Shown here: piece by piece, positions 4,931 through 13,946 of the stretch | Position numbering within the stretch: position 1 is the stretch's first letter | Layout: the number at the start of each line of letters is the position of its first letter | Source: a virus | Taxonomy: Duplodnaviria > Heunggongvirae > Uroviricota > Caudoviricetes | Virus record (IMG/VR): IMGVR_UViG_2690316248_000008 | Strand: one strand, 5' to 3' | Length of the DNA: 17,916 nt | Translations under genes and position numbers: made by a program | The notes under the pieces: model-generated | Seen by the model: the letters and a program-made list of their open reading frames with translations, nothing else | Database searches by the model: none | Told to the model about the DNA's origin: nothing

Positions 4931-6697
4931 ATGAACACCACACTGACACCCGCAGATCTCGATCCCCGTCGGCAGGCCATGCTGCTGTACTTTCAGGGAT
5001 ACCGCGTAGCCCGCATTGCTGAAATGCTGGGCGAGAAAGTTGCAACTGTTCACAGCTGGAAAAAACGCGACAAGTGGGGTGACTATGGGCCGCTGGATCA
5101 GATGCAGCTCACCACCGCCGCACGCTACTGCCAGCTCATTATGAAGGAGCACAAAGAAGGGAAAGATTTCAAAGAGATTGACCTGCTGGCGCGCCAGTCG
5201 GAGCGCCATGCGCGGATCGGCAAGTTTAACAATGGCGGCAACGAAGCCGACTTAAACCCTAACGTCGCCAACCGCAACAAAGGCCCGCGCCGTCAGCCGG
5301 AAAAGAACGTTTTCACCGATGAACAGATTGAGAAGCTGGAAGAAATCTTCCATTCCTCCATGTTCAACTACCAGCGCCACTGGTGGGAAGCCGGAAAAAA
5401 CAACCGCATCCGCAACCTGCTGAAGTCACGCCAGATCGGCGCAACCTTTTACTTTGCCCGTGAAGCCCTGATTGACGCTCTGCTTACCGGGCGTAACCAG
5501 ATTTTCCTTTCCGCCAGTAAGGCACAGGCCCACGTCTTTAAGCAGTACATCATCGACTTCGCCAAAGAAGTGGAGGTGGAGCTGAAAGGCGATCCGATGG
5601 TGCTTCCTAACGGGGCCACGCTTTACTTCCTAGGCACCAATGCCCGCACGGCCCAGAGTTATCACGGCAACCTGTATCTGGATGAATATTTCTGGATACC
5701 AAAATTTCAGGAGCTGCGCAAAGTGGCTTCCGGTATGGCTATTCACAAGAAATGGCGACAGACCTATTTTTCCACGCCATCCAGCCTGACCCACAGTGCT
5801 TATCCGTTCTGGTCCGGCGCGTTGTTCAACCGTGGGCGCAACAAAGCCGATAAGGTGGACATCGACCTGTCCCACAGCAATCTGGCCCCCGGCCTGCTGT
5901 GCGCAGACGGGCAATACCGCCAGATAGTCACCGTGGAAGATGCGGTACGCGGCGGCTGTAACCTGTTCGACCTCGACCAGTTGCGCATGGAGTACAGCCC
6001 GGACGAATACCAGAACCTGCTGATGTGCGAGTTCGTTGACGATCTCGCATCTGTGTTCCCGCTCAGCGAATTGCAGGCGTGCATGGTGGACAGCTGGGAA
6101 GTCTGGACCGACTTTCATGCACTGGCGCTGCGCCCGTTTGGCTGGCGCGAAGTGTGGATCGGTTATGACCCGGCAAAAGGTACGCAGAACGGCGACAGTG
6201 CCGGATGCGTGGTGGTGGCTCCGCCAGCCGTGCCGGGCGGTAAGTTCCGTATTCTTGAGCGTCACCAGTGGCGCGGGATGGACTTCCGCGCCCAGGCGGA
6301 CGCCATCAAAAAACTGACCGAACAGTACAACGTGACATATATCGGCATCGACTCGACAGGTGTCGGTCACGGGGTTTATGAGAACGTGAAAGCGTTCTTT
6401 CCTGCCGTCCGGGAGTTTGTCTACAACCCCAACGTTAAAAACGCCCTGGTACTCAAGGCCTACGACATTATCAGCCACCGCCGTCTGGAGTTTGACGCCG
6501 GACACACCGACATTGCGCAGTCATTCATGGCAATCCGTCGCGCAACCACCGCCAGCGGCAACCGCCCGACCTATGAAGCCAGCCGCAGCGAAGAAGCCAG
6601 CCACGCCGATCTGGCCTGGGCAACAATGCACGCACTGTTTAACGAACCACTGCAGGGCGAGTCCGCCAATACCAGTAATATTGTGGAGATTTTTTGA
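4931..6697 (+). CDS. P: Terminase ATPase/large subunit (P2 gpP-like)
   Basis: 588 aa; divergent from O and immediately upstream of the portal gene, as in P2. Its stop overlaps the Q start (TGATG). Confidence 0.9.
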   Translation: MNTTLTPADLDPRRQAMLLYFQGYRVARIAEMLGEKVATVHSWKKRDKWGDYGPLDQMQLTTAARYCQLIMKEHKEGKDFKEIDLLARQSERHARIGKFNNGGNEADLNPNVANRNKGPRRQPEKNVFTDEQIEKLEEIFHSSMFNYQRHWWEAGKNNRIRNLLKSRQIGATFYFAREALIDALLTGRNQIFLSASKAQAHVFKQYIIDFAKEVEVELKGDPMVLPNGATLYFLGTNARTAQSYHGNLYLDEYFWIPKFQELRKVASGMAIHKKWRQTYFSTPSSLTHSAYPFWSGALFNRGRNKADKVDIDLSHSNLAPGLLCADGQYRQIVTVEDAVRGGCNLFDLDQLRMEYSPDEYQNLLMCEFVDDLASVFPLSELQACMVDSWEVWTDFHALALRPFGWREVWIGYDPAKGTQNGDSAGCVVVAPPAVPGGKFRILERHQWRGMDFRAQADAIKKLTEQYNVTYIGIDSTGVGHGVYENVKAFFPAVREFVYNPNVKNALVLKAYDIISHRRLEFDAGHTDIAQSFMAIRRATTASGNRPTYEASRSEEASHADLAWATMHALFNEPLQGESANTSNIVEIF

Positions 6698-7722
6698 TGG
6701 GAAAGAGTAAGAAGAACCGCGCTGCGTCGACGAACCAGCTCCAGCATAAAAGCCAGACTTCAGCCGAAGCATTCAGCTTCGGTGATCCCGTTCCTGTTCT
6801 GGACCGCCGTGAACTGCTGGACTATGTGGAATGCGTACAGACAGATCGCTGGTATGAGCCGCCCGTCAGCTTTGACGGACTGGCGCGCACCTTCCGCGCC
6901 GCCGTGCATCACAGTTCTCCGATTGCAGTAAAGTGCAACATTCTGACCAGTACCTATATCCCTCATCCGCTGCTCAGCCAGCAGGCTTTTTCGCGTTTTG
7001 TGCAGGACTATCTGGTATTTGGTAACGCCTACCTGGAGAAACGCACGAACCGATTCGGTGAAGTTATCGCCCTTGATCCTGCGCTGGCAAAATACACCCG
7101 ACGCGGGTTAGACCTGGATACCTACTGGTTTGTGCAATACGGTATGACAACCCAGCCGTATCAGTTCACGAAAGGCAGCATTTTTCATCTGATGGAACCG
7201 GACATCAACCAGGAGATCTACGGCCTGCCCGGCTATCTTTCTGCCATTCCGTCAGCCCTGCTCAATAAGTCCGCCACGCTGTTCCGCCGCAAGTATTACA
7301 TCAACGGCAGCCATGCAGGCTTCATCATGTATATGACCGATGCCGCGCAGAATCAGGAGGATGTGAACAATCTCCGCAACGCGATGAAAAGTGCCAAAGG
7401 TCCTGGTAACTTCCGTAACCTGTTTATGTACTCGCCTAACGGTAAAAAGGACGGGCTTCAGATTATCCCGTTGTCAGAAGTGGCGGCGAAGGATGAGTTC
7501 CTGAATATCAAGAACGTGAGCCGGGACGACATGATGGCGGCGCATCGTGTGCCGCCACAAATGATGGGGATAATGCCTAATAATGTTGGAGGGTTTGGGG
7601 ATGTGGAGAAGGCGAGTAAGGTTTTTGTTAGAAATGAACTAATTCCACTCCAAAAAAGAATAATGGAAGTTAATGAATGGTTAGGTGAGAAAACTATCCG
7701 ATTTCAGCATTATGATTTATAA
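6697..7722 (+). CDS. Q: Portal protein (P2 gpQ-like)
   Basis: 341 aa from the ATG at 6697 (GGAG RBS 9 nt upstream). The ORF-track start at 6694 is a TTG. Followed by a strong terminator. Confidence 0.9.
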   Translation: MGKSKKNRAASTNQLQHKSQTSAEAFSFGDPVPVLDRRELLDYVECVQTDRWYEPPVSFDGLARTFRAAVHHSSPIAVKCNILTSTYIPHPLLSQQAFSRFVQDYLVFGNAYLEKRTNRFGEVIALDPALAKYTRRGLDLDTYWFVQYGMTTQPYQFTKGSIFHLMEPDINQEIYGLPGYLSAIPSALLNKSATLFRRKYYINGSHAGFIMYMTDAAQNQEDVNNLRNAMKSAKGPGNFRNLFMYSPNGKKDGLQIIPLSEVAAKDEFLNIKNVSRDDMMAAHRVPPQMMGIMPNNVGGFGDVEKASKVFVRNELIPLQKRIMEVNEWLGEKTIRFQHYDL

Positions 7723-7747
7723 AAAAACGCCCTAAAAGGGCGTTTTC
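7721..7747. terminator. Bidirectional rho-independent terminator between portal gene Q and the convergent cargo operon
   Basis: AAAACGCCC-TAAAA-GGGCGTTTT hairpin with a 9-bp stem. It is followed by a T-run on the plus strand and by seven T on the minus strand. Confidence 0.7.
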
Positions 7748-8194
7748 CTAAGATTCTGTCGTTGTCTCTAATGAACACCAAGCATTAATTCCCATTTTTG
7801 AGACAGCTATCAACATAATTACTACAGCTGGAGCAATAAATGTTGCTGTTGCCCCCAAAGAACCCGCAATTGCCGAAGAGATCACCCCTACAAAGTATGT
7901 TTTAACATCACCAGTCAGTGCTCCTAAACATTCCCTCTCCTCTGCATATTTATCACCTCCACATACAAAAGCCTTAAACTCTAATTTAAACTGCTCAACA
8001 AACGCTTTTCTTCCCGGCATTTTTGAATTATCACCGCCAAATTGAGCAACTGAACTTGGGCCAGATGCAGTTAGCCATAGCTCAAGAGCCTTTTCTTCAT
8101 CGCCATTTTCGAGAAAATTCCTGACAGATGAAGATTGATACGTTTTTAAAGTGGACAACCAAGACTCAGCATCTTCATTTGGTATAGCAATCAT
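7748..8194 (-). CDS. Hypothetical protein with soluble N-terminal domain and C-terminal membrane anchor; partner of the upstream protease
   Basis: 148 aa. The C-terminal hydrophobic stretch YFVGVISSAIAGSLGATATFIAPAVVIMLIAVSKMGI is about 35 residues, enough for one long helix or a TM hairpin. ATG overlaps the protease stop (ATGA at 8191-8194). AT-rich codon usage, unlike the phage core. Confidence 0.6.
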   Translation of the reverse strand: MIAIPNEDAESWLSTLKTYQSSSVRNFLENGDEEKALELWLTASGPSSVAQFGGDNSKMPGRKAFVEQFKLEFKAFVCGGDKYAEERECLGALTGDVKTYFVGVISSAIAGSLGATATFIAPAVVIMLIAVSKMGINAWCSLETTTES

Positions 8195-8838
8195 AACATA
8201 TCCTTAACATATTCTGCAGAAACCGCATAAGTTGTCTGATGTAGTTCAGCTGGATTAATACCTCCAACCAAAACAGAACCTCCAGAATTATTTGCATAAG
8301 CGCCAACCAAGACGCCTATTACCGAGTCATTTTTTAAATTAAATACAATCGATCCCGATTGACCAGGTCTGGTTTGGATATTTATAACGGCATGTTTAGA
8401 TTGAATATTACTGCTTGAAAGTAAAACTTTTGCACCTATTTTTGCCGTTTGAAATGTCAATACTTTTCTATTTTCATTACAATGTGGGAAACCTAAAATA
8501 CCCACATCTTCACCGACATTAACATCGTCAAGAGTAGCAATTTTTAGGCAAGGTTCATAAACAGGTGCATTTTTAATTTTTAACACACATAAGTCTTTTA
8601 TTGGATCTTCATCAATAACATCAACTCCAATACATTGAAATTTATCAACACTTGTATCCTGATAACTATTAAAGTTATTTATATTAGATGGAGAAATAAC
8701 TAAGTTAGAAGAAAACCCATTAATAACATGGCGGGAAGTAATTATTTTATCCTTAGAAATAAAAAAACCTGTTCCTAAAAAACTAACCAAACCTGCATTA
8801 AGCACGCCAACAACTACGACATATTCAGGACCAATCAT
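8191..8838 (-). CDS. Trypsin-fold (chymotrypsin-like, S1/Trypsin_2-type) serine protease
   Basis: Catalytic triad motifs in canonical order: GTGFFISKDKIITSRHVI (His), DLCVLKI (Asp), PGQSGSIVF (Ser). Start set at the ATG at 8838 with GGAG about 5-8 nt upstream. The ORF-track extension to 8976 would run across the cos-like sequence. Confidence 0.75.
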   Translation of the reverse strand: MIGPEYVVVVGVLNAGLVSFLGTGFFISKDKIITSRHVINGFSSNLVISPSNINNFNSYQDTSVDKFQCIGVDVIDEDPIKDLCVLKIKNAPVYEPCLKIATLDDVNVGEDVGILGFPHCNENRKVLTFQTAKIGAKVLLSSSNIQSKHAVINIQTRPGQSGSIVFNLKNDSVIGVLVGAYANNSGGSVLVGGINPAELHQTTYAVSAEYVKDML

Positions 8839-8921
8839 AACAACTCCATTCTGTAATATGTTATGGACTCTGACTAAGACAATACTTAACCAAACCGTGA
8901 ATATCAAGGTGCAAGCGCGCG

Positions 8922-8940
8922 CTCGTATCCCCGCCACGCC
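8922..8940 (-). other. Putative cos cohesive-end sequence
   Basis: The minus strand reads GGCGTGGCGGGGATACGAG. Its first 13 nt match the 186-type cohesive end as I recall it (GGCGTGGCGGGGA...), and the adjacent AGCGCGCG resembles the sequence next to P2 cos. Orientation relative to Q is as expected. Based on recalled sequences, not a search. Confidence 0.4.
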
Positions 8941-8989
8941 TGCCCGCTTTATGTAGTGGTTTTCATGCAGGAGCATGATCTACGCAAAA

Positions 8990-9009
8990 GCCCGCCAGTT
9001 CTGGCGGGC
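8990..9009. other. Perfect 9-bp inverted repeat (GCCCGCCAG-TT-CTGGCGGGC) beside the cos-like site
   Basis: Read directly from sequence. A T-run follows only on the minus strand. Could be a terminator or a packaging/cos accessory structure. Confidence 0.35.
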
Positions 9010-9282: not shown

Positions 9283-9708
9283 ATGAAAAGCTTTTACGTA
9301 TTAATTTTAATTCTGGTTGCAAGCTTTGTTAGCGTCCCTGTTCAGGCGGTAACAGCTAAAAACTATGAGAAAGGAACTAAAGCTCAACAGAAATCAATAT
9401 CTTACCTTTCATGTGCATTCTATGGCAGTAGCACACAATTAGATCCTAGCTACACGGAGCAAGTACCTACAGCCGATATCAAGATATTACAGAAAGCAGC
9501 TTACCACGCTTACAACGATGCGCTCTCATACTTTGGCTATGAGGAACCAGATCACGAACAACGCATAATTGATTATGCTGAATTTGTGGCGTCGCAAGAA
9601 GCTGTGTTATGGGATAAGCCGGGAATGAATGGAAAGCAGGTAACACTAATTGCTCGTTCTCTCTACAATGAGAGTAACTGTAACTTGTTACTGGACTCAA
9701 TTAAGTAG
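9283..9708 (+). CDS. Hypothetical secreted/periplasmic protein (cargo moron)
   Basis: 141 aa. N-terminal signal peptide MKSFYVLILILVASFVSVPVQA with an AXA-type cleavage site. GAGG RBS upstream. AT-rich; the only plus-strand gene between cos and gene A. Confidence 0.6.
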   Translation: MKSFYVLILILVASFVSVPVQAVTAKNYEKGTKAQQKSISYLSCAFYGSSTQLDPSYTEQVPTADIKILQKAAYHAYNDALSYFGYEEPDHEQRIIDYAEFVASQEAVLWDKPGMNGKQVTLIARSLYNESNCNLLLDSIK

Positions 9709-9867: not shown

Positions 9868-10101
9868 TTAATGCAGCCAGCTGTCGTCTTCCCACACCTT
9901 CTGCATAATCTTCATCACTTGTTTTCTTTCTTCGTCCAGTTGCAGTCCGGTCAGTTCCACACCGTTAGAGCTACCTTTGCGGATGCGAATTACCGTTTTG
10001 GGATACAGGGGGCGCAGATTGCGGTAAAGCTCGGATTCAAGGGCGTCCAGGGTAGACTGGCTAATCTTCTGCTCTTTATCGATCATTATTTCAATGCGCA
10101 T
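9868..10101 (-). CDS. DinI-family protein (Tum C-terminal-like)
   Basis: 77 aa from the ATG at 10101. MRIEIMIDK...LDALESEL...KIMQKVWEDDSW resembles E. coli DinI (MRIEV..., ending with an acidic W-containing tail). RBS GAGGTGA overlaps the stop of the upstream gene. Confidence 0.8.
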   Translation of the reverse strand: MRIEIMIDKEQKISQSTLDALESELYRNLRPLYPKTVIRIRKGSSNGVELTGLQLDEERKQVMKIMQKVWEDDSWLH

Positions 10102-10111
10102 AAAGGTCACC

Positions 10112-10300
10112 TCAGCTGATGACATCCATTGAGCGGTTGTATTCGTGGGTTCTGATTTTTGCCATGAGTTCATCTGTCAGTTCAGAAACCCACTGCAAAG
10201 CCAGCCCCTTCTCTTCATCACTACACTCACTAGCCGCTACAAGCTTAAGAAAAAAATCAATGCGCTGGAGCTTCAAAGACTCCAAAAAATAGTCCTGCAT
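10112..10300 (-). CDS. Small SOS-regulated protein, possible Tum-like antirepressor N-terminal part
   Basis: 62 aa from the ATG at 10300, with AGGAGG 4 nt upstream. It is the first gene downstream of the LexA box and 10 bp upstream of the DinI-like gene. Confidence 0.5.
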   Translation of the reverse strand: MQDYFLESLKLQRIDFFLKLVAASECSDEEKGLALQWVSELTDELMAKIRTHEYNRSMDVIS

Positions 10301-10341
10301 CTTTCCTCCTATGACACCACAAGCAATACTGTATACATAAC

Positions 10342-10361
10342 CACTGTTTATATTTACAGTA
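10342..10361. promoter_or_regulatory. LexA operator (SOS box) in the promoter of the small-protein/DinI-like operon
   Basis: CACTGTTTATATTTACAGTA is a perfect CTGT-N8-ACAG palindrome with an AT-rich core. Candidate -35 TTTACA and -10 TATACT on the minus strand overlap it. Confidence 0.7.
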
Positions 10362-10453
10362 TATAATAATCTTACTGATGTAAAACGTTTTTTTACGTTC
10401 ATTAGCCTGATATGCCTGGTATTATTAAGAGCACGAATTGTTAACCCGCGTAA

Positions 10454-12868
10454 TTAATACAGGTTTCGCCACTTATCATCTTCCTGCAAACGCTGGTTCC
10501 GATAGAAGATACGCAGGCCTGCTCCTGACGGAATACTGCCGCCGCGAAGGAGTAAATCGACCTCTTTCTCGCTGCCATTAAATCCTCTGGACTTCAGTTC
10601 ATAGACGAGCTGCTGTCGCTGATGGTCTATAATTCGCTGTTTGTAGTCTTTACGCCGTTTCGGTTTCACCAGGCGTAACCTTGCAGCCAGTTCCCGGCGC
10701 TCTTTTTTGCTCATACTGTGCAGGTAATCGTGCAACTCCTTGTCATCCATGCGGGTAATGTCCGTCCTGGTATCCCCATCAGCTGATTTGTCTTTCCCTT
10801 GTTGGTTCAAATTTTCAGCAAGGGGACAGTTATTGCCACGAGTCCAAGGGGCGCAAGCGCCCTGGTCGGCTGCCGCCTCCTGAACGTCAACGGCTTTACG
10901 AACCATTTTCCACTTCACTGCATGAGTGCAGATCTTGCCTTCTGCAATGGGTGACCAGATGCCATAAATACGAATACCGTGATCGCCATAGGCGGTCGGC
11001 TCTTCATTGATTTCATAAGCGGTTCTGATCAAGTGATATTTGCGAGGAACCAGCACGCCGCCCTGCCTCATAATGTAGGTGGCAAAACAGCCAGCATCAG
11101 CAGCAGCCAGGATGGCATCAAGGCGCGGGTTATCCAGTACCGGCGCACCTGCTTTTTTGTCACCCTGCTGCCTTGCCGCCTGACCAGCCAACAACCGCAG
11201 TTCACGGTAAGCCTGACGCCCTGGAATACCAAAGAAGCGGAATTGCTGAACACGATGCAGAGACGCCCAGGCATTAACGTATTCAGCGTTATCACGCAGG
11301 GATTTACCCGTTTCCTTGCTGATCTCGCCAGCCAGACCACGCCCGTCAATGTTCTTACTGATGTATTTCGCGATGTAGCTTGTCGGCGTTCCTTTGCGCG
11401 GGTTTATCAGCTCAGATTTAAAGCGTGGACCAGTGTTATTACCCAGTTCCTCGCGGTCTTCACGGATGGCAAACTTACGCAACAATGCAGTAATGGCGCG
11501 GCGGTCTTTTTTGCGCATAAAACACAACAGGTGCCAGTGAACTGTACCGTCATGATGCGGCTCAGCCACCCGCACGCCATACCAGCGCAACCCGGCTTTG
11601 TGCATCGCCTTACGAAATGCAGCAAACATGCCGACCAGATAATCGCTGCTTTGTCTTACCGTCGCATTTGTCCAGGTTGGGTTTGGTCTGCCGTTATTGA
11701 GCGTGGAATGGAAACGTGACGGACAGGTAATGGTGTAGAAAACGGCGCAGTCACCGCGCATTTCCGCGATAAGCTCCAGACCTTTAACACAGGCCATCAT
11801 CTCATTGCGGCGGTGCGCCGGGTTGCTGCTGCTGGCGTTTACCACGTCTTCCATATCCAGCGTGTCGCCCTCTTCGTTCACCAGTTCATGAGAACGGAAA
11901 AACTCCAGTGACTTGCGGCGCTGCTCACGTTTATGCATCACGGCTTCATAGCTGACATAGGGAGATGCTTTTTTGCTGACCAGGCAGACAGCACGCAACT
12001 GCTCTTCCCGCCATTCGCAACGCATTTTCCATAATTTCCGGTACCACCAGTCGGCGCACAACATACGCGCCAGCGAACCCGGAATGAGTTCATAGGGCAC
12101 GGGTTTACGGCGGTTTCTTTTCCGACGGAGTTGCTCAAACGCAGGCGGGATGACATCCAGACGCAGGGTTTCCGCTGCCACCTTTTCCCATGTCTTGCGG
12201 ATTTCTTCTGGCTTAACGTCATCGGTGGCATACAAATCACCACAAGCTGCATCAAGGCACATGCTCATATGCGCAGCGACAAGGGTAGACAGGCGTTTCA
12301 CCTGATCCTGACTCATTTCAGGCAGAATCAGCAGGCCGTCCAGCCCTACATGGCTTGCCATAAAACGAAAAGATGCAGATAGCTGGCTGTCGCGTACATG
12401 CTCCAGTCGTTCCAGACATGGCTTAATCGTCTCACGTAAATAGCGGGAATAAGCCTTTGGCCTGCCCAGGCTGCTGAAGTATTCAATACGTTGCATCAGC
12501 GGCTTGCTGATATGGGAAGGCTGGGCGTTGACGTCCGCCAGAATGACCATATCCGGATTAAAACGCTGCTGCTCATGCGCCAGCTTTGCCCGGCTAATGA
12601 GCTTATCCTGCTCCATTTCGTGCTGGACAGGATCACGTGATTCATTAAAAAAATAACGCTCCCAGACCTGATCACTCAGTGCCTCGCGGCGCAACTGTTC
12701 CTGCTCGTTATCGGCAGCGTACAGAGTGATCAGGTTTGAAAGCGCAGAAACCGGCGCAACTTCCGCCGGGTCCAGATAAGGGTTAATGGCCTTTTTCGGG
12801 CTGTTCCATGAGAACGCTGCGGCAGCCTCGTTAAAGCCGCAGCAGTTGTTCATATCGGCATGGCTCAT
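10454..12868 (-). CDS. A: Replication initiation endonuclease (P2/186 gpA-like, rolling-circle initiator)
   Basis: 804 aa, the largest early gene, in the gpA position downstream of the early operon. Call rests on size, position and overall resemblance to P2/186 A proteins; no single motif was verified. ATG overlaps the Dam stop (ATGA). Confidence 0.85.
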
Positions 12869-13722
12869 GCACGTACTCCGTACACGGCAGAACTATCCAC
12901 GCCACGCGAATAATCAAATCCCACCCAGCAGCGCGGCCCGGAAACAGCAATGATTTCTGTTGCTGATTTACCCTCGCCAGCTGCCACACCGATGATGCGT
13001 TTTACCTTGATATAGTGGTGAGTAAAATTGCGATACAGCGAACGGATCAGGGATGTGTCACTGTTAGAAACAATGACCGGATGTCCTTCTGATGACCGAT
13101 GTTCAAGAACAGATGCCAGGTGATACTGGTCATCTTCAGTGAAGCCGTCAGTGTGATAGCCGGAAAACGTACCGTCATACGGTGGATCGCAATACACCAC
13201 ATCCCCCGCCTTCAACATCGCCAGCGTTTCATCAAAGCTGGCGCAGATAAACGTTGCTCGCTGGGCTTTTTCTGCAAATGCGCGAATTTCTTTTTCAGGG
13301 AAATACGGATTTTTATAATTGCCGTAGGGAATGTTGAAATGCCCGCTCTTGTTATAGCGACATAAACCACGGTAACCGTGACGATTGAGATACAGGAAAT
13401 ATACCGCTTTCATGAAATCAGTAATTTCAGTTGAGTAATTAAACTCCTTCCTTATGTTGTAATAAGCCACCTCCCTGTTTGCGATCTCAAATAAAACTCT
13501 GGCGCGAGATATAAACGATTCACAATCAGCAGCAACCTTTTTATAGAGGTTGATTAAATCAGGATTAATATCCGCAACAAGATAGCTGGGGTACTCCGTC
13601 TCCATCATCACTGCACAGGAACCCGCGAAAGGTTCAACCAGTCGCGGGCCAGCAGGAAGATGCTTTTTCAGTTCGGACATAATGGCGGTTTTATTTCCCG
13701 CCCATTTCAGGATGGTGCTCAT
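12865..13722 (-). CDS. dam: DNA adenine methyltransferase (Dam-like, N6-adenine)
   Basis: 285 aa from the ATG at 13722. N-terminal LKWAGNK (AdoMet-binding motif) and catalytic DPPY are present. Translationally coupled to both neighbours. Confidence 0.85.
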
Positions 13723-13946
13723 ACAGCACCTCCGTTGTAATGTTTGCCTTTCAGCTCTGCGATTTCCTGACAGGTAATGCAAAGCTGCACACCTGGAATG
13801 GCACGGCGGCGTGCTGGCGGAATTGGCGCTTCACACTCAATGCAAAGCACGCGGGACACGCCCGGCGTTTTGGCACGGGCAGCACGGATATGACGCTGGC
13901 GTTCTTCTTCAACGCGCTGCTGTACGAGATCCATTGCATCAGCCAT
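13719..13946 (-). CDS. TraR/DksA-family C4 zinc-finger protein
   Basis: 75 aa with CIECEAPI...CITCQ (CxxC-N17-CxxC). AGGAG RBS 8 nt upstream of the ATG. Confidence 0.75.
   Translation of the reverse strand: MADAMDLVQQRVEEERQRHIRAARAKTPGVSRVLCIECEAPIPPARRRAIPGVQLCITCQEIAELKGKHYNGGAV

Follow-up and report, generated by a model that had tools for sequence, protein, structure and literature searches.

What function is served by two small genes lying between the portal gene Q and the cos-like site of a P2/186-like prophage? The locus is contained in a window (the whole stretch of viral DNA analysed; IMG/VR record IMGVR_UViG_2690316248_000008) of 17,916 nucleotides, in which a cassette of two minus-strand genes, referred to here as A and B, lay in an AT-rich insert of 1.2 kb that is flanked by Q and a cos-like 19-mer. 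An earlier reading, made from the sequence only, had described a serine protease coupled to a membrane-anchored protein, and had suggested abortive infection or superinfection exclusion as their role. The features of the locus are listed below in order of position.

6694-7722, plus strand: portal gene Q, which bounds the insert on its other side; a 100%-identical record (SF-468) annotates it as phage portal protein.
7724-7747, both strands: GC-rich terminator hairpin (10-14 bp), positioned like tQ of P2.
8194-7748, minus strand: gene B (148 aa), encoding a predicted all-alpha protein of the PDC-M35B family.
8191-8194, minus strand: ATGA overlap between the stop of A (TGA) and the start of B (ATG), read from the sequence.
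8205-8201, minus strand: AAGGA, ribosome-binding site 6 nt upstream of the B start.
8838-8191, minus strand: gene A (215 aa, beginning MIGPEY), encoding a predicted cytoplasmic serine protease (S1, chymotrypsin fold) with a single domain, from the PDC-M35A family.
8847-8844, minus strand: Shine-Dalgarno sequence GGAG, 5 nt upstream of the A start, read from the sequence.
8879-8907, minus strand: promoter-like site of the sigma-70 type (TTGATA-17-TATTGT), located between cos and gene A, with 9 of 12 matches in a consensus scan.
8940-8922, minus strand: cos-like 19-mer GGCGTGGCGGGGATACGAG, which aligns with the cos junction of P2; it lies 83 bp upstream of gene A and bounds the insert.
10454-12868: replication gene A of the phage (not gene A of the cassette).

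Both boundaries were compared with those of P2. The Q product was 62% identical to P2 gpQ, and the 19-mer shared 14 of its 19 bases with P2 cos (our own count). The same cos-like 19-mer was found ~83 bp upstream of A in one related locus (L088), and a related one ~124 bp upstream of A in another (L089). The distance from cosL to the Q stop was 1199 bp here, compared with 167 bp in P2; the latter value replaces the ~120 bp that the sequence-only reading had given for the spacing between cos and Q. Its description of an AT-rich cargo between the Q terminator and cos was borne out: GC content was 0.29-0.41 over positions 7601-9000, compared with 0.52-0.60 for the structural genes and 0.52-0.56 for the replication gene. 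In folding calculations, the hairpin at 7724-7747 gave -17.5 kcal/mol (z -5.6) on the minus strand, where UUUUUUU follows, and -13.7 kcal/mol (z -3.8) on the plus strand, where it follows the stop codon of Q. Because it folds on both strands, this hairpin would act as a bidirectional terminator, common to the convergent Q (plus) and A-B operon (minus); a consensus scan did not flag it. Since sigma-70-like sites in the region were no commoner than in shuffled sequence, the site at 8879-8907 is a weak candidate for the native promoter of A-B.

Protein A is, as judged from its profile matches, a trypsin-fold S1 serine protease, cytoplasmic and sensor-less, with an intact catalytic triad. All three triad motifs that had been named earlier were present: ITSRHVI at residues 33-39 (His37), DLCVLKI at residues 82-88 (Asp82), and GQSGS at residues 159-163 (Ser161). 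His37, Asp82, and Ser161 were invariant, and in this order, in 35 aligned A homologues from many phyla. Profile searches against Pfam and PADLOC, which the sequence-only reading had proposed as a check, upheld the protease fold: A matched Trypsin_2 (PF13365) over the complete profile (positions 1-144 of 144; E 1.2e-15; 59 bits vs a curated cut-off of 27.6), and also Pfam Trypsin (E 5.3e-9). The nearest solved relatives were the Spl, V8, and HtrA proteases, and the next-best PADLOC matches after those to its own family were the protease domains of retron XI, Lamassu LmuA, Hachiman HamA, and Avs1b. A single domain with no fused sensor was found in the Pfam search, and the homologues were uniformly ~215 aa in length. 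A mechanical open reading frame reaching to 8976 would give a 261-aa version of A, which was rejected because the extension crosses the cos-like site. For this reason, and because all 35 aligned homologues begin at the MI.. position, the previously assumed start at 8838 was accepted as the true one.

Protein B matched no family in Pfam or NCBIfam, and no Pfam family was matched consistently by 144 members of its family. The only match in PHROGs was marginal, to a family of unknown function; a sequence-profile search of the PDB gave nothing below E 0.07, and no match was found in a fold search. The AF2 model was all-alpha (pLDDT 89.5, pTM 0.84), with confidence dropping only in the loop at residues 43-59, and consisted of the following parts.

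Residues 1-43: N-terminal helical part (AF2 model).
Residues 43-59: flexible loop, which holds the conserved G45-P-x-N-T-A-P-F52-G53-G54.
Residues 60-91: middle helical part (AF2 model).
Residues 97-113 and 117-134: hydrophobic helical hairpin (AF2 model).
NAWC140: conserved end motif.

Among the B relatives, F52 of the loop motif was conserved in 129 of 143 and G53 in 131 of 144, and the motif was followed by a linker of variable length. A conserved motif located in the one low-confidence loop of the model provides candidate cleavable anatomy. Of the hydrophobic C-terminal anchor claimed in the sequence-only reading, the hydrophobic stretch itself was confirmed (~38 residues, with a hydropathy peak of 2.32 at residues 113-131), but it was modelled as a packed two-helix hairpin, not as a single transmembrane helix. 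The hairpin is rich in Gly, Ser, and Ala and, from its sequence, appears hydrophobic enough to be membrane-active. In the confident model, it packed with the N-terminal helices. Mean-field DCA of 144 B sequences, which was dominated by conserved-column artefacts, gave weak couplings between the hairpin and the N-terminal helices. The hairpin may be buried, as the pTM and these noisy couplings hint; packed in this way, B could be latent and soluble.

The related loci were gathered with the protease (A) alignment, because the B alignment contained no conserved 7-10-mer. B was located directly after A in 97 of 98 related loci. Translational coupling of the two genes had been proposed from their overlap, and positions 8194-8191 of the minus strand did read ATGA; overlaps of 4 or 1 nt recurred in 61 of 93 loci, and the junction fell within -10 to +20 nt in 89 of these 93. 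The pairwise identities of A and B were correlated (r = 0.83; permutation maximum, 0.08). A conserved third (sensor) gene was not found among 748 clustered neighbours, the largest cluster of which occurred in 13 loci at variable positions. At the level of sequence, these results showed that A and B form an adjacent, co-inherited, and (as predicted from the junctions) co-translated two-gene unit. Fusion of A and B as a conserved architecture was rejected, only two fused reading frames having been found: the Psychromonas protein, a deletion fusion, occurs once in 5.8 billion proteins, and A is truncated in that of Tigheibacillus. Both A and B have hundreds of full-length homologues, so that neither open reading frame is due to chance.

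The cassette corresponds to the PADLOC candidate system PDC-M35, both profiles being matched by adjacent genes on one strand. A matched PDC-M35A (E 4.5e-94; 312 bits; residues 5-215, profile positions 6-216 of 216) and B matched PDC-M35B (E 4.3e-58; residues 3-145, profile positions 6-145 of 148) together with two further PDC-M35B profiles. No family had been recognised for B in the sequence-only reading; this full-length match assigns it to one that comprises 739 representatives at 50% identity, and the PADLOC matches of the 144 sampled B relatives were to PDC-M35B alone. When set beside PDC-M35 (Payne et al. 2024), the pair belonged to the same family, with both proteins full-length, adjacent, and on the same strand, and showed no difference at the sequence level. 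PDC-M35 is one of 145 bioinformatic "phage defence candidates", the prediction of which started from genes lying inside BREX, DISARM, and type I RM systems (Payne et al. 2024, bioRxiv 10.1101/2024.01.29.577857). The PADLOC match establishes which family the proteins belong to, and adds no independent support for a defence role.

The exact locus is also on record as the pair WP_001350593 + WP_000560513 in Table S5 of Rousset et al. 2022, and was not among the cassettes cloned there. The cloned 'Peptidase + TM' cassette of that study (pFR104) was considered as the same system and rejected, since its peptidase is a HEXXH, ImmA/IrrE-type metallopeptidase. In the literature searched, we found neither a mention of PDC-M35 by name nor an experimental test of the defence activity of the pair, and the pair was not found in Vassallo 2022, DefensePredictor, Liu-DS, the modularity-network preprint, the metagenomic-selection study, the Canu paper, or the 2026 review. 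The locus and the pair are already catalogued (PADLOC-DB; Rousset 2022 Table S5) and not new, and the value of the cassette therefore lies in mechanism and validation, not in discovery.

Experiments support the view that P2-like phages have a hotspot for defence genes in their gpA-gpQ region (Rousset et al. 2022; Vassallo et al. 2022). The cassette lies between the replication gene and Q, adjoins cos, and occupies a position whose content varies among related prophages. Similar to P2 old/tin and to other gpA-gpQ cargo, it is found in the cos-proximal variable region, is AT-rich, and has its own promoter-like site and terminator. On the other hand, its proteins are unrelated to those of old/tin, and it is located between cos and Q, 83 bp from cos, whereas old/tin is on the side of cos that faces the phage replication gene A. 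The earlier suggestion of abortive infection or exclusion agreed with both the candidate status of PDC-M35 and this hotspot site; the function itself we infer.

An anti-phage defence role of the cassette is probable in our estimation, and its more specific assignment as a protease-gated membrane effector that causes abortive infection falls a little short of an even chance. As a self-contained accessory module that a P2/186-like prophage carries at its cos-proximal hotspot, the cassette would most likely protect the lysogen by abortive infection or exclusion. In the uninfected cell, B would be latent, its hairpin being held on the N-terminal helices or lying harmless in the membrane. Upon infection, A would cut B in the exposed conserved loop (G45 to G54, ahead of the variable linker) and free a C-terminal fragment of approximately residues 55-148, the Gly/Ser/Ala-rich hairpin of which would insert and oligomerise in the inner membrane, dissipate the membrane potential, and halt phage development. 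Since A has no sensor domain and there is no conserved third gene, the trigger would have to target A itself or else the N-terminal part of B; possible triggers are, for instance, a phage protein that binds and exposes the loop, or relief of an inhibition of A. That A is sensor-less is a point against this proposed mechanism, which by itself does not account for the trigger. Our inference covers the point of cleavage, the regulatory direction (A activating B, or B restraining A), and the membrane activity alike.

Pepco, EACC1, bacterial gasdermin, and MBL/Canu are defence modules switched on by site-specific proteolysis (Evans et al. 2025, bioRxiv 10.1101/2025.11.14.688446; Tuck et al. 2026). 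As in Pepco, EACC1, gasdermin, and MBL, a protease gene is here coupled to a small non-enzymatic partner with putative membrane-active features, the A-B pair co-evolves and moves as a unit, and B has an exposed segment suited to cleavage. However, in contrast to Pepco (beta-barrel), EACC1 (beta-rich, with cysteine-protease partners), gasdermin, and MBL, B is modelled as all-alpha and has no sequence or fold similarity to them: no homology to these effectors was found in PADLOC, by fold, or in Pfam searches with the 144 members (using a Pfam copy that may lack the Pepco and EACC1 profiles). Furthermore, A differs from the proteases of Pepco/EACC1-type modules in being a bare protein of 215 aa, unfused to STAND, Hachiman, retron, or CARD sensors, and no sensor gene is conserved nearby. 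To our knowledge, every characterised case of licensing by proteolysis couples the protease to a large sensor.

Pore formers of the colicin, Bcl-2, and diphtheria-T type are proteins with a buried hydrophobic hairpin. B is similar to them in that it is predicted to form a small helical bundle, whose Gly/Ala/Ser-rich hydrophobic hairpin could switch from a packed to a membrane-inserted state; structural similarity of the B bundle to colicin/Bcl-2-like helical pore formers was not found.

A stronger version of the protease-gated effector, which we hold to be speculative and rather unlikely as a whole, is that PDC-M35 is a complete immune system of 363 residues and the first member of a new class of all-alpha membrane effectors that are gated by a protease. 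The N-terminal helices of B would both mask the hairpin and sense the phage, the bare A would cut the GP..T.PFGG loop only once a phage product has remodelled B or A, and the hairpin fragment would oligomerise into a depolarising pore. If this is the case, PDC-M35 would be the minimal known sensor-transducer-executioner circuit, with a fold unrelated to gasdermin, Pepco, and EACC1. In bacterial immunity, the licensing of death effectors by proteolysis is turning out to be a common principle, which parallels gasdermin/caspase signalling; if A-B has a defence function, it would bring in a new class of effector and raise the question of how a bare protease senses infection. As a natural cassette of 1.2 kb with its own promoter-like site and terminator, it is a ready test case, in which Ser161 and the candidate loop are clear targets for mutation.

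The roles of the two proteins may also be reversed, in a toxin-antitoxin-like arrangement that we consider unlikely. In this case, A would be the effector, cutting an essential host factor or a phage protein (cf. Lit, IetS, and the caspase of type IV Thoeris), and B a membrane-tethered inhibitor, sensor, or localiser that is displaced or degraded on infection, thereby freeing A. The nearest defence relatives of A do include proteases that act as effectors or transducers, and the literature holds precedents for proteases that cleave EF-Tu or serve as toxins. B evolves faster than A (mean identity of 35% vs 49%), as is often so for phage-facing sensors and antitoxins, and the strict 1:1 coupling of A and B fits a stoichiometric inhibitor equally well. 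In spite of these points, the best-conserved features of B, namely the hydrophobic hairpin and the exposed loop motif, typify a membrane effector with a cleavage site rather than a protease inhibitor, and it is the small partner that is the executioner in the characterised small protease-partner pairs; both count against the reversed roles.

Homologues were found in at least eight phyla, among them Proteobacteria, Bacteroidota, Firmicutes, Cyanobacteria, Planctomycetota, Chloroflexi, Actinomycetes, and Spirochaetes, and sequence comparison showed the pair to be a unit that has apparently moved horizontally across phyla. In a possible non-immune role, the cassette would be selfish or housekeeping, for example an addiction module stabilising a mobile element, or stress-responsive regulated proteolysis, hitch-hiking in variable regions. 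In a sample of 38 loci with 150 neighbours, the families seen most often were ATPases of the OLD/AbiL/PARIS/Gabija type (~5 proteins), a point for defence; RM genes, integrases, and transposases were also present, the latter two frequently. Defence genes flanked only a minority of the sampled loci, and many copies lay amid ordinary metabolic genes, as a non-immune cassette would. Embedding among defence genes and a hotspot site are, moreover, associations only, and approximately five of eight previously untested P2 hotspot cassettes gave no phenotype (Rousset et al. 2022). Nevertheless, the Clostridium perfringens copy was located inside a type I RM operon, between hsdS and hsdR and beside a SMODS-SLATT pair; the cassette occurred at the P2 hotspot of four diverged P2-like lineages; and A is related to the proteases of defence systems. 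Addiction and defence can also coexist, and a purely non-immune role appears improbable to us beside that of the protease-gated effector.

Superinfection exclusion at the envelope, raised in the sequence-only reading, with B as a constitutive inner-membrane block to DNA entry or receptor function that A only matures or turns over and with no cell death, would suit a prophage-borne cargo adjoining cos and a hydrophobic segment compatible with membrane insertion, but is very improbable because most family members lay outside prophages (only 12 viral contigs), neither A nor B has a signal peptide, and Sie proteins are usually specific to a phage lineage, not spread over eight phyla with an obligate protease partner.

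The cassette was present in 13 of 5426 E. coli genomes, compared with 1272 that had the cos flank (8902-9000) and ~1000 that had a related 3' end of the portal gene. This survey of the position confirmed that the pair is a rare accessory cargo, and not a core function of P2-like phages. The E. coli hosts of the prophages carrying it were ExPEC/APEC.

Genes A and B, coding for a serine protease and a small helical protein with a hydrophobic hairpin, respectively, were found as two minus-strand ORFs exactly where the sequence-only reading had placed them, with reading frames overlapping by ATGA. The window is a P2/186-like prophage, and E. coli SF-468, like a dozen other ExPEC/APEC genomes, was 100% identical to it over the region. 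The gene order was lysis genes, head genes, terminase P, portal Q, the A-B region, a DinI-like gene, replication gene A (distinct from gene A of the pair), a Dam-like methylase, cII/CI, and integrase, with the following features:

4931-6697, plus strand: terminase P
6694-7722, plus strand: portal Q
7724-7747, both strands: strong bidirectional terminator hairpin, at the end of the A-B operon and common to Q
8194-7748, minus strand: gene B, 148 aa
8838-8191, minus strand: gene A, 215 aa
8922-8940: cos-like 19-mer, 83 bp upstream of the A start, aligning with the P2 cos junction
9283-9708, plus strand: ORF of 141 aa with a signal-peptide-like N-terminus, MKSFYVLILILVASFVSVPVQA
9868-10173 and 10112-10402, minus strand: DinI-like gene (Pfam DinI, 1.3e-22) and a small hypothetical gene
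10454-12868, minus strand: replication gene A
12865-13782, minus strand: D12-class N6-adenine DNA methyltransferase (2.8e-75)

Shine-Dalgarno sequences preceded both genes (GGAG before A and AAGGA before B), and a weak promoter-like site was located between the A start and the cos-like 19-mer. A longer mechanical ORF of A (to 8976) was rejected: it crossed the cos-like site, and since the extension was missing from all homologues, the start of A was assigned to 8838. As the earlier reading described, the operon was AT-rich (GC of 0.29-0.41 vs 0.52-0.60 in the flanking phage genes) and bounded by the Q terminator and the cos-like sequence. The gap between cos and Q in P2, given there as approximately 120 bp, was in fact 167 bp (cosL to the Q stop), versus 1199 bp here; the cassette has thus been inserted between cos and Q. 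The GC drop started ~130 nt ahead of the Q stop (Q 3' end, 7590-7722, plus strand), and megablast alignments with P2-like portal genes elsewhere in E. coli ended at variable points (window 7616-7708); the hotspot recombination junctions thus seem to lie within the last codons of Q, not past Q.

The S1-type catalytic triad read from the first ORF was confirmed: A matched the entire Trypsin_2 profile (59 bits; cut-off of 27.6), and His37, Asp82, and Ser161 were invariant in 35 homologues from many phyla. Its nearest solved relatives were the staphylococcal Spl and V8 proteases and HtrA/DegP proteases, and neither a signal peptide nor an additional domain was found. As judged from the sequence, A is an intact, cytoplasmic, single-domain S1 serine protease. 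B had no sequence match in Pfam, NCBIfam, or PDB. While the initial reading recognized no family for it, an exhaustive profile search retrieved relatives in 739 representative clusters (50% identity), almost all of them 137-170 aa long with end-to-end matches. Against PADLOC-DB, A matched PDC-M35A (4.5e-94) and B matched PDC-M35B (4.3e-58), both at full length, and 144 of 144 sampled B relatives matched PDC-M35B only; by these profile matches, the pair belongs to PDC-M35 and is already catalogued as a candidate. The PDC collection comprises 145 "phage defence candidates", predicted from family members embedded in operons of BREX, DISARM, or type I RM systems; no mention of PDC-M35 was found in the literature searched. 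The exact pair (WP_001350593 and WP_000560513) is listed among the P2 gpA-gpQ hotspot gene arrangements in Table S5 of Rousset et al. (2022); it was not one of the eight hotspot cassettes cloned in that study. The "Peptidase + TM" construct of the same authors was ruled out as this pair, being an unrelated HEXXH metallopeptidase pair. No experimental test of A-B was found in the other recent discovery papers and reviews covered.

When the protease alignment was used to search genomes and viral contigs, the hits, together with loci already collected, amounted to 98 loci from at least 8 phyla. In 97 of them, A was followed by a co-oriented B-family ORF, and the lone exception stopped at a contig edge. 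Among the 93 loci with placeable starts, the junction was a 4- or 1-nt overlap in 61 and between -10 and +20 nt in 89. Pairwise identities of A and B were correlated (r = 0.83; maximum of 0.08 in 500 permutations), with B diverging faster (mean identity of 35% vs 49% for A). Clustering of 748 neighbouring ORFs revealed no conserved third gene, and the unit thus consists of two genes, with no dedicated sensor for the protease. A-B is an obligate, co-translated, mobile, and accessory unit. In-frame fusions occurred in L054 (Psychromonas sp. SA13A, 9974-10903), in which a deletion linked A residue 209 to B at the GPxxT..FGG loop with the loss of the N-terminal 41-43 residues of B, and in L083 (Tigheibacillus jepli, 9980-10960), in which the A stop codon was lost and A was N-terminally truncated. 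The former was a singleton among a 5.8-billion-protein database, and both are probably decaying copies.

The cassette was present in only 13 of 5426 complete E. coli genomes, always next to the portal gene, versus 1272 with the adjacent cos flank, which ruled out a conserved core function of P2-like phages. Diverged versions of the pair were found in the gpA-gpQ hotspot of diverged P2-like elements (protease 77%, 52%, and 47% identical; portal 89%, 61%, and 35%). A cos-like 19-mer was located ~83-124 bp upstream of A in two of these related loci (L088 and L089), while the sequence of L087 started at the A start; a cos-like motif was not found in L028 (Marinomonas), where the pair was ~5 kb from the portal gene. 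Neighbourhoods were heterogeneous. In Clostridium perfringens (L004/L005, 4599-14244), A-B and a SMODS-SLATT pair were nested in a type I RM system, with hsdM/hsdS on one side and hsdR on the other; this region, also with a tyrosine-recombinase fragment and an upstream PLD-helicase gene, is a compact defence island. The commonest neighbour family was OLD/AbiL/PARIS/Gabija-type ATPases (~5 of 150 proteins); other neighbours included integrases, transposases, RM genes, a Schlafen-like helicase, and nSTAND3. The position and contexts of the pair were associated with defence, and the cassette is probably an anti-phage or exclusion module. The putative abortive-infection or exclusion role originally guessed agrees with the PDC-M35 assignment and the hotspot list. 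Other copies of the pair were located among ordinary genes. A non-immune addiction or housekeeping cassette appears improbable.

The AlphaFold2 model of B (144 relatives as input) was all-alpha and confident (pLDDT of 89.5, pTM of 0.84), with lower confidence only in the loop 43-59 and last few residues. Outside the core, family conservation was highest in this loop, at the motif G45-P-x-N-T-A-P-F52-G53-G54, in which F52 was shared by 129 of 143 sequences and G53 by 131 of 144; a linker variable in length and sequence came next. Residues 97-134 (peak Kyte-Doolittle 19-residue mean of 2.32) formed two hydrophobic helices, rich in Gly, Ser, and Ala, that met at near-invariant G114; P122 was also near-invariant, and the family ended in a conserved NAWC motif. 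The membrane anchor proposed earlier corresponded to a hydrophobic C-terminal segment that was a two-helix hairpin in the model. The high pTM and a few noisy coevolution couplings between the hairpin and N-terminal helices (F69-I129, T15-L128, I4-V104, and Y83-M127) hint at a packed, latent state. C78, in the middle helical part, and C140, just past the hairpin, were near-invariant (138 and 139 of 144, respectively); in a protein predicted to be cytoplasmic, a staple, redox switch, or metal site are possibilities.

On the model of Pepco, EACC1, and gasdermin, we tentatively propose that A may cleave B to release a membrane effector. A would cut B in the exposed conserved loop, parting the N-terminal helices from the hairpin-bearing C-terminal part, which would enter and collapse the inner membrane, thereby aborting infection. 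Since there was no sensor domain or gene, the trigger must act directly on A or B. The main rival, a reversed logic in which the effector, toxic or antiviral, would be A itself and B would be its inhibitor or sensor, appears rather unlikely, and superinfection exclusion at the envelope level very improbable. Although similar in logic to the known protease-effector modules, A-B differed in having no sensor and an effector not homologous to any described family. No significant match to the B fold was found in PDB or BFVD, and colicin/Bcl-2-type hairpin proteins, to which the fold search lent no support, are analogous only. As P2 hotspot cargo, the pair was typical in kind, but located on the Q side of cos, with old and tin of P2 on the other side. 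Defence cargo at this position would not surprise specialists; a protease/hairpin system of 363 residues that is sensor-less and has a new effector fold would be a worthwhile and easily testable addition.

On the opposite side of cos from A-B, the ORF at 9283-9708 (annotated as hypothetical protein WP_000834899) had no match in a Pfam search; Rousset et al. list its product within the same hotspot arrangement, and it could represent a second cargo protein that is secreted. The DinI-like gene and a small hypothetical gene (9868-10173 and 10112-10402, both minus strand) separated the cargo from replication gene A; these ORFs overlapped as listed, and the SF-468 annotation has shorter starts. The D12-class methyltransferase gene overlaps the stop of the replication endonuclease gene, which it directly follows, and codes for the Dam-like methylase of this 186-like prophage. 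Just past the left end of the window, a gene for an AAA family ATPase of ~650 aa (SF-468 locus L001, 1-145) is annotated next to this prophage's genes for tail and virion morphogenesis; it may be cargo occupying a second variable site.
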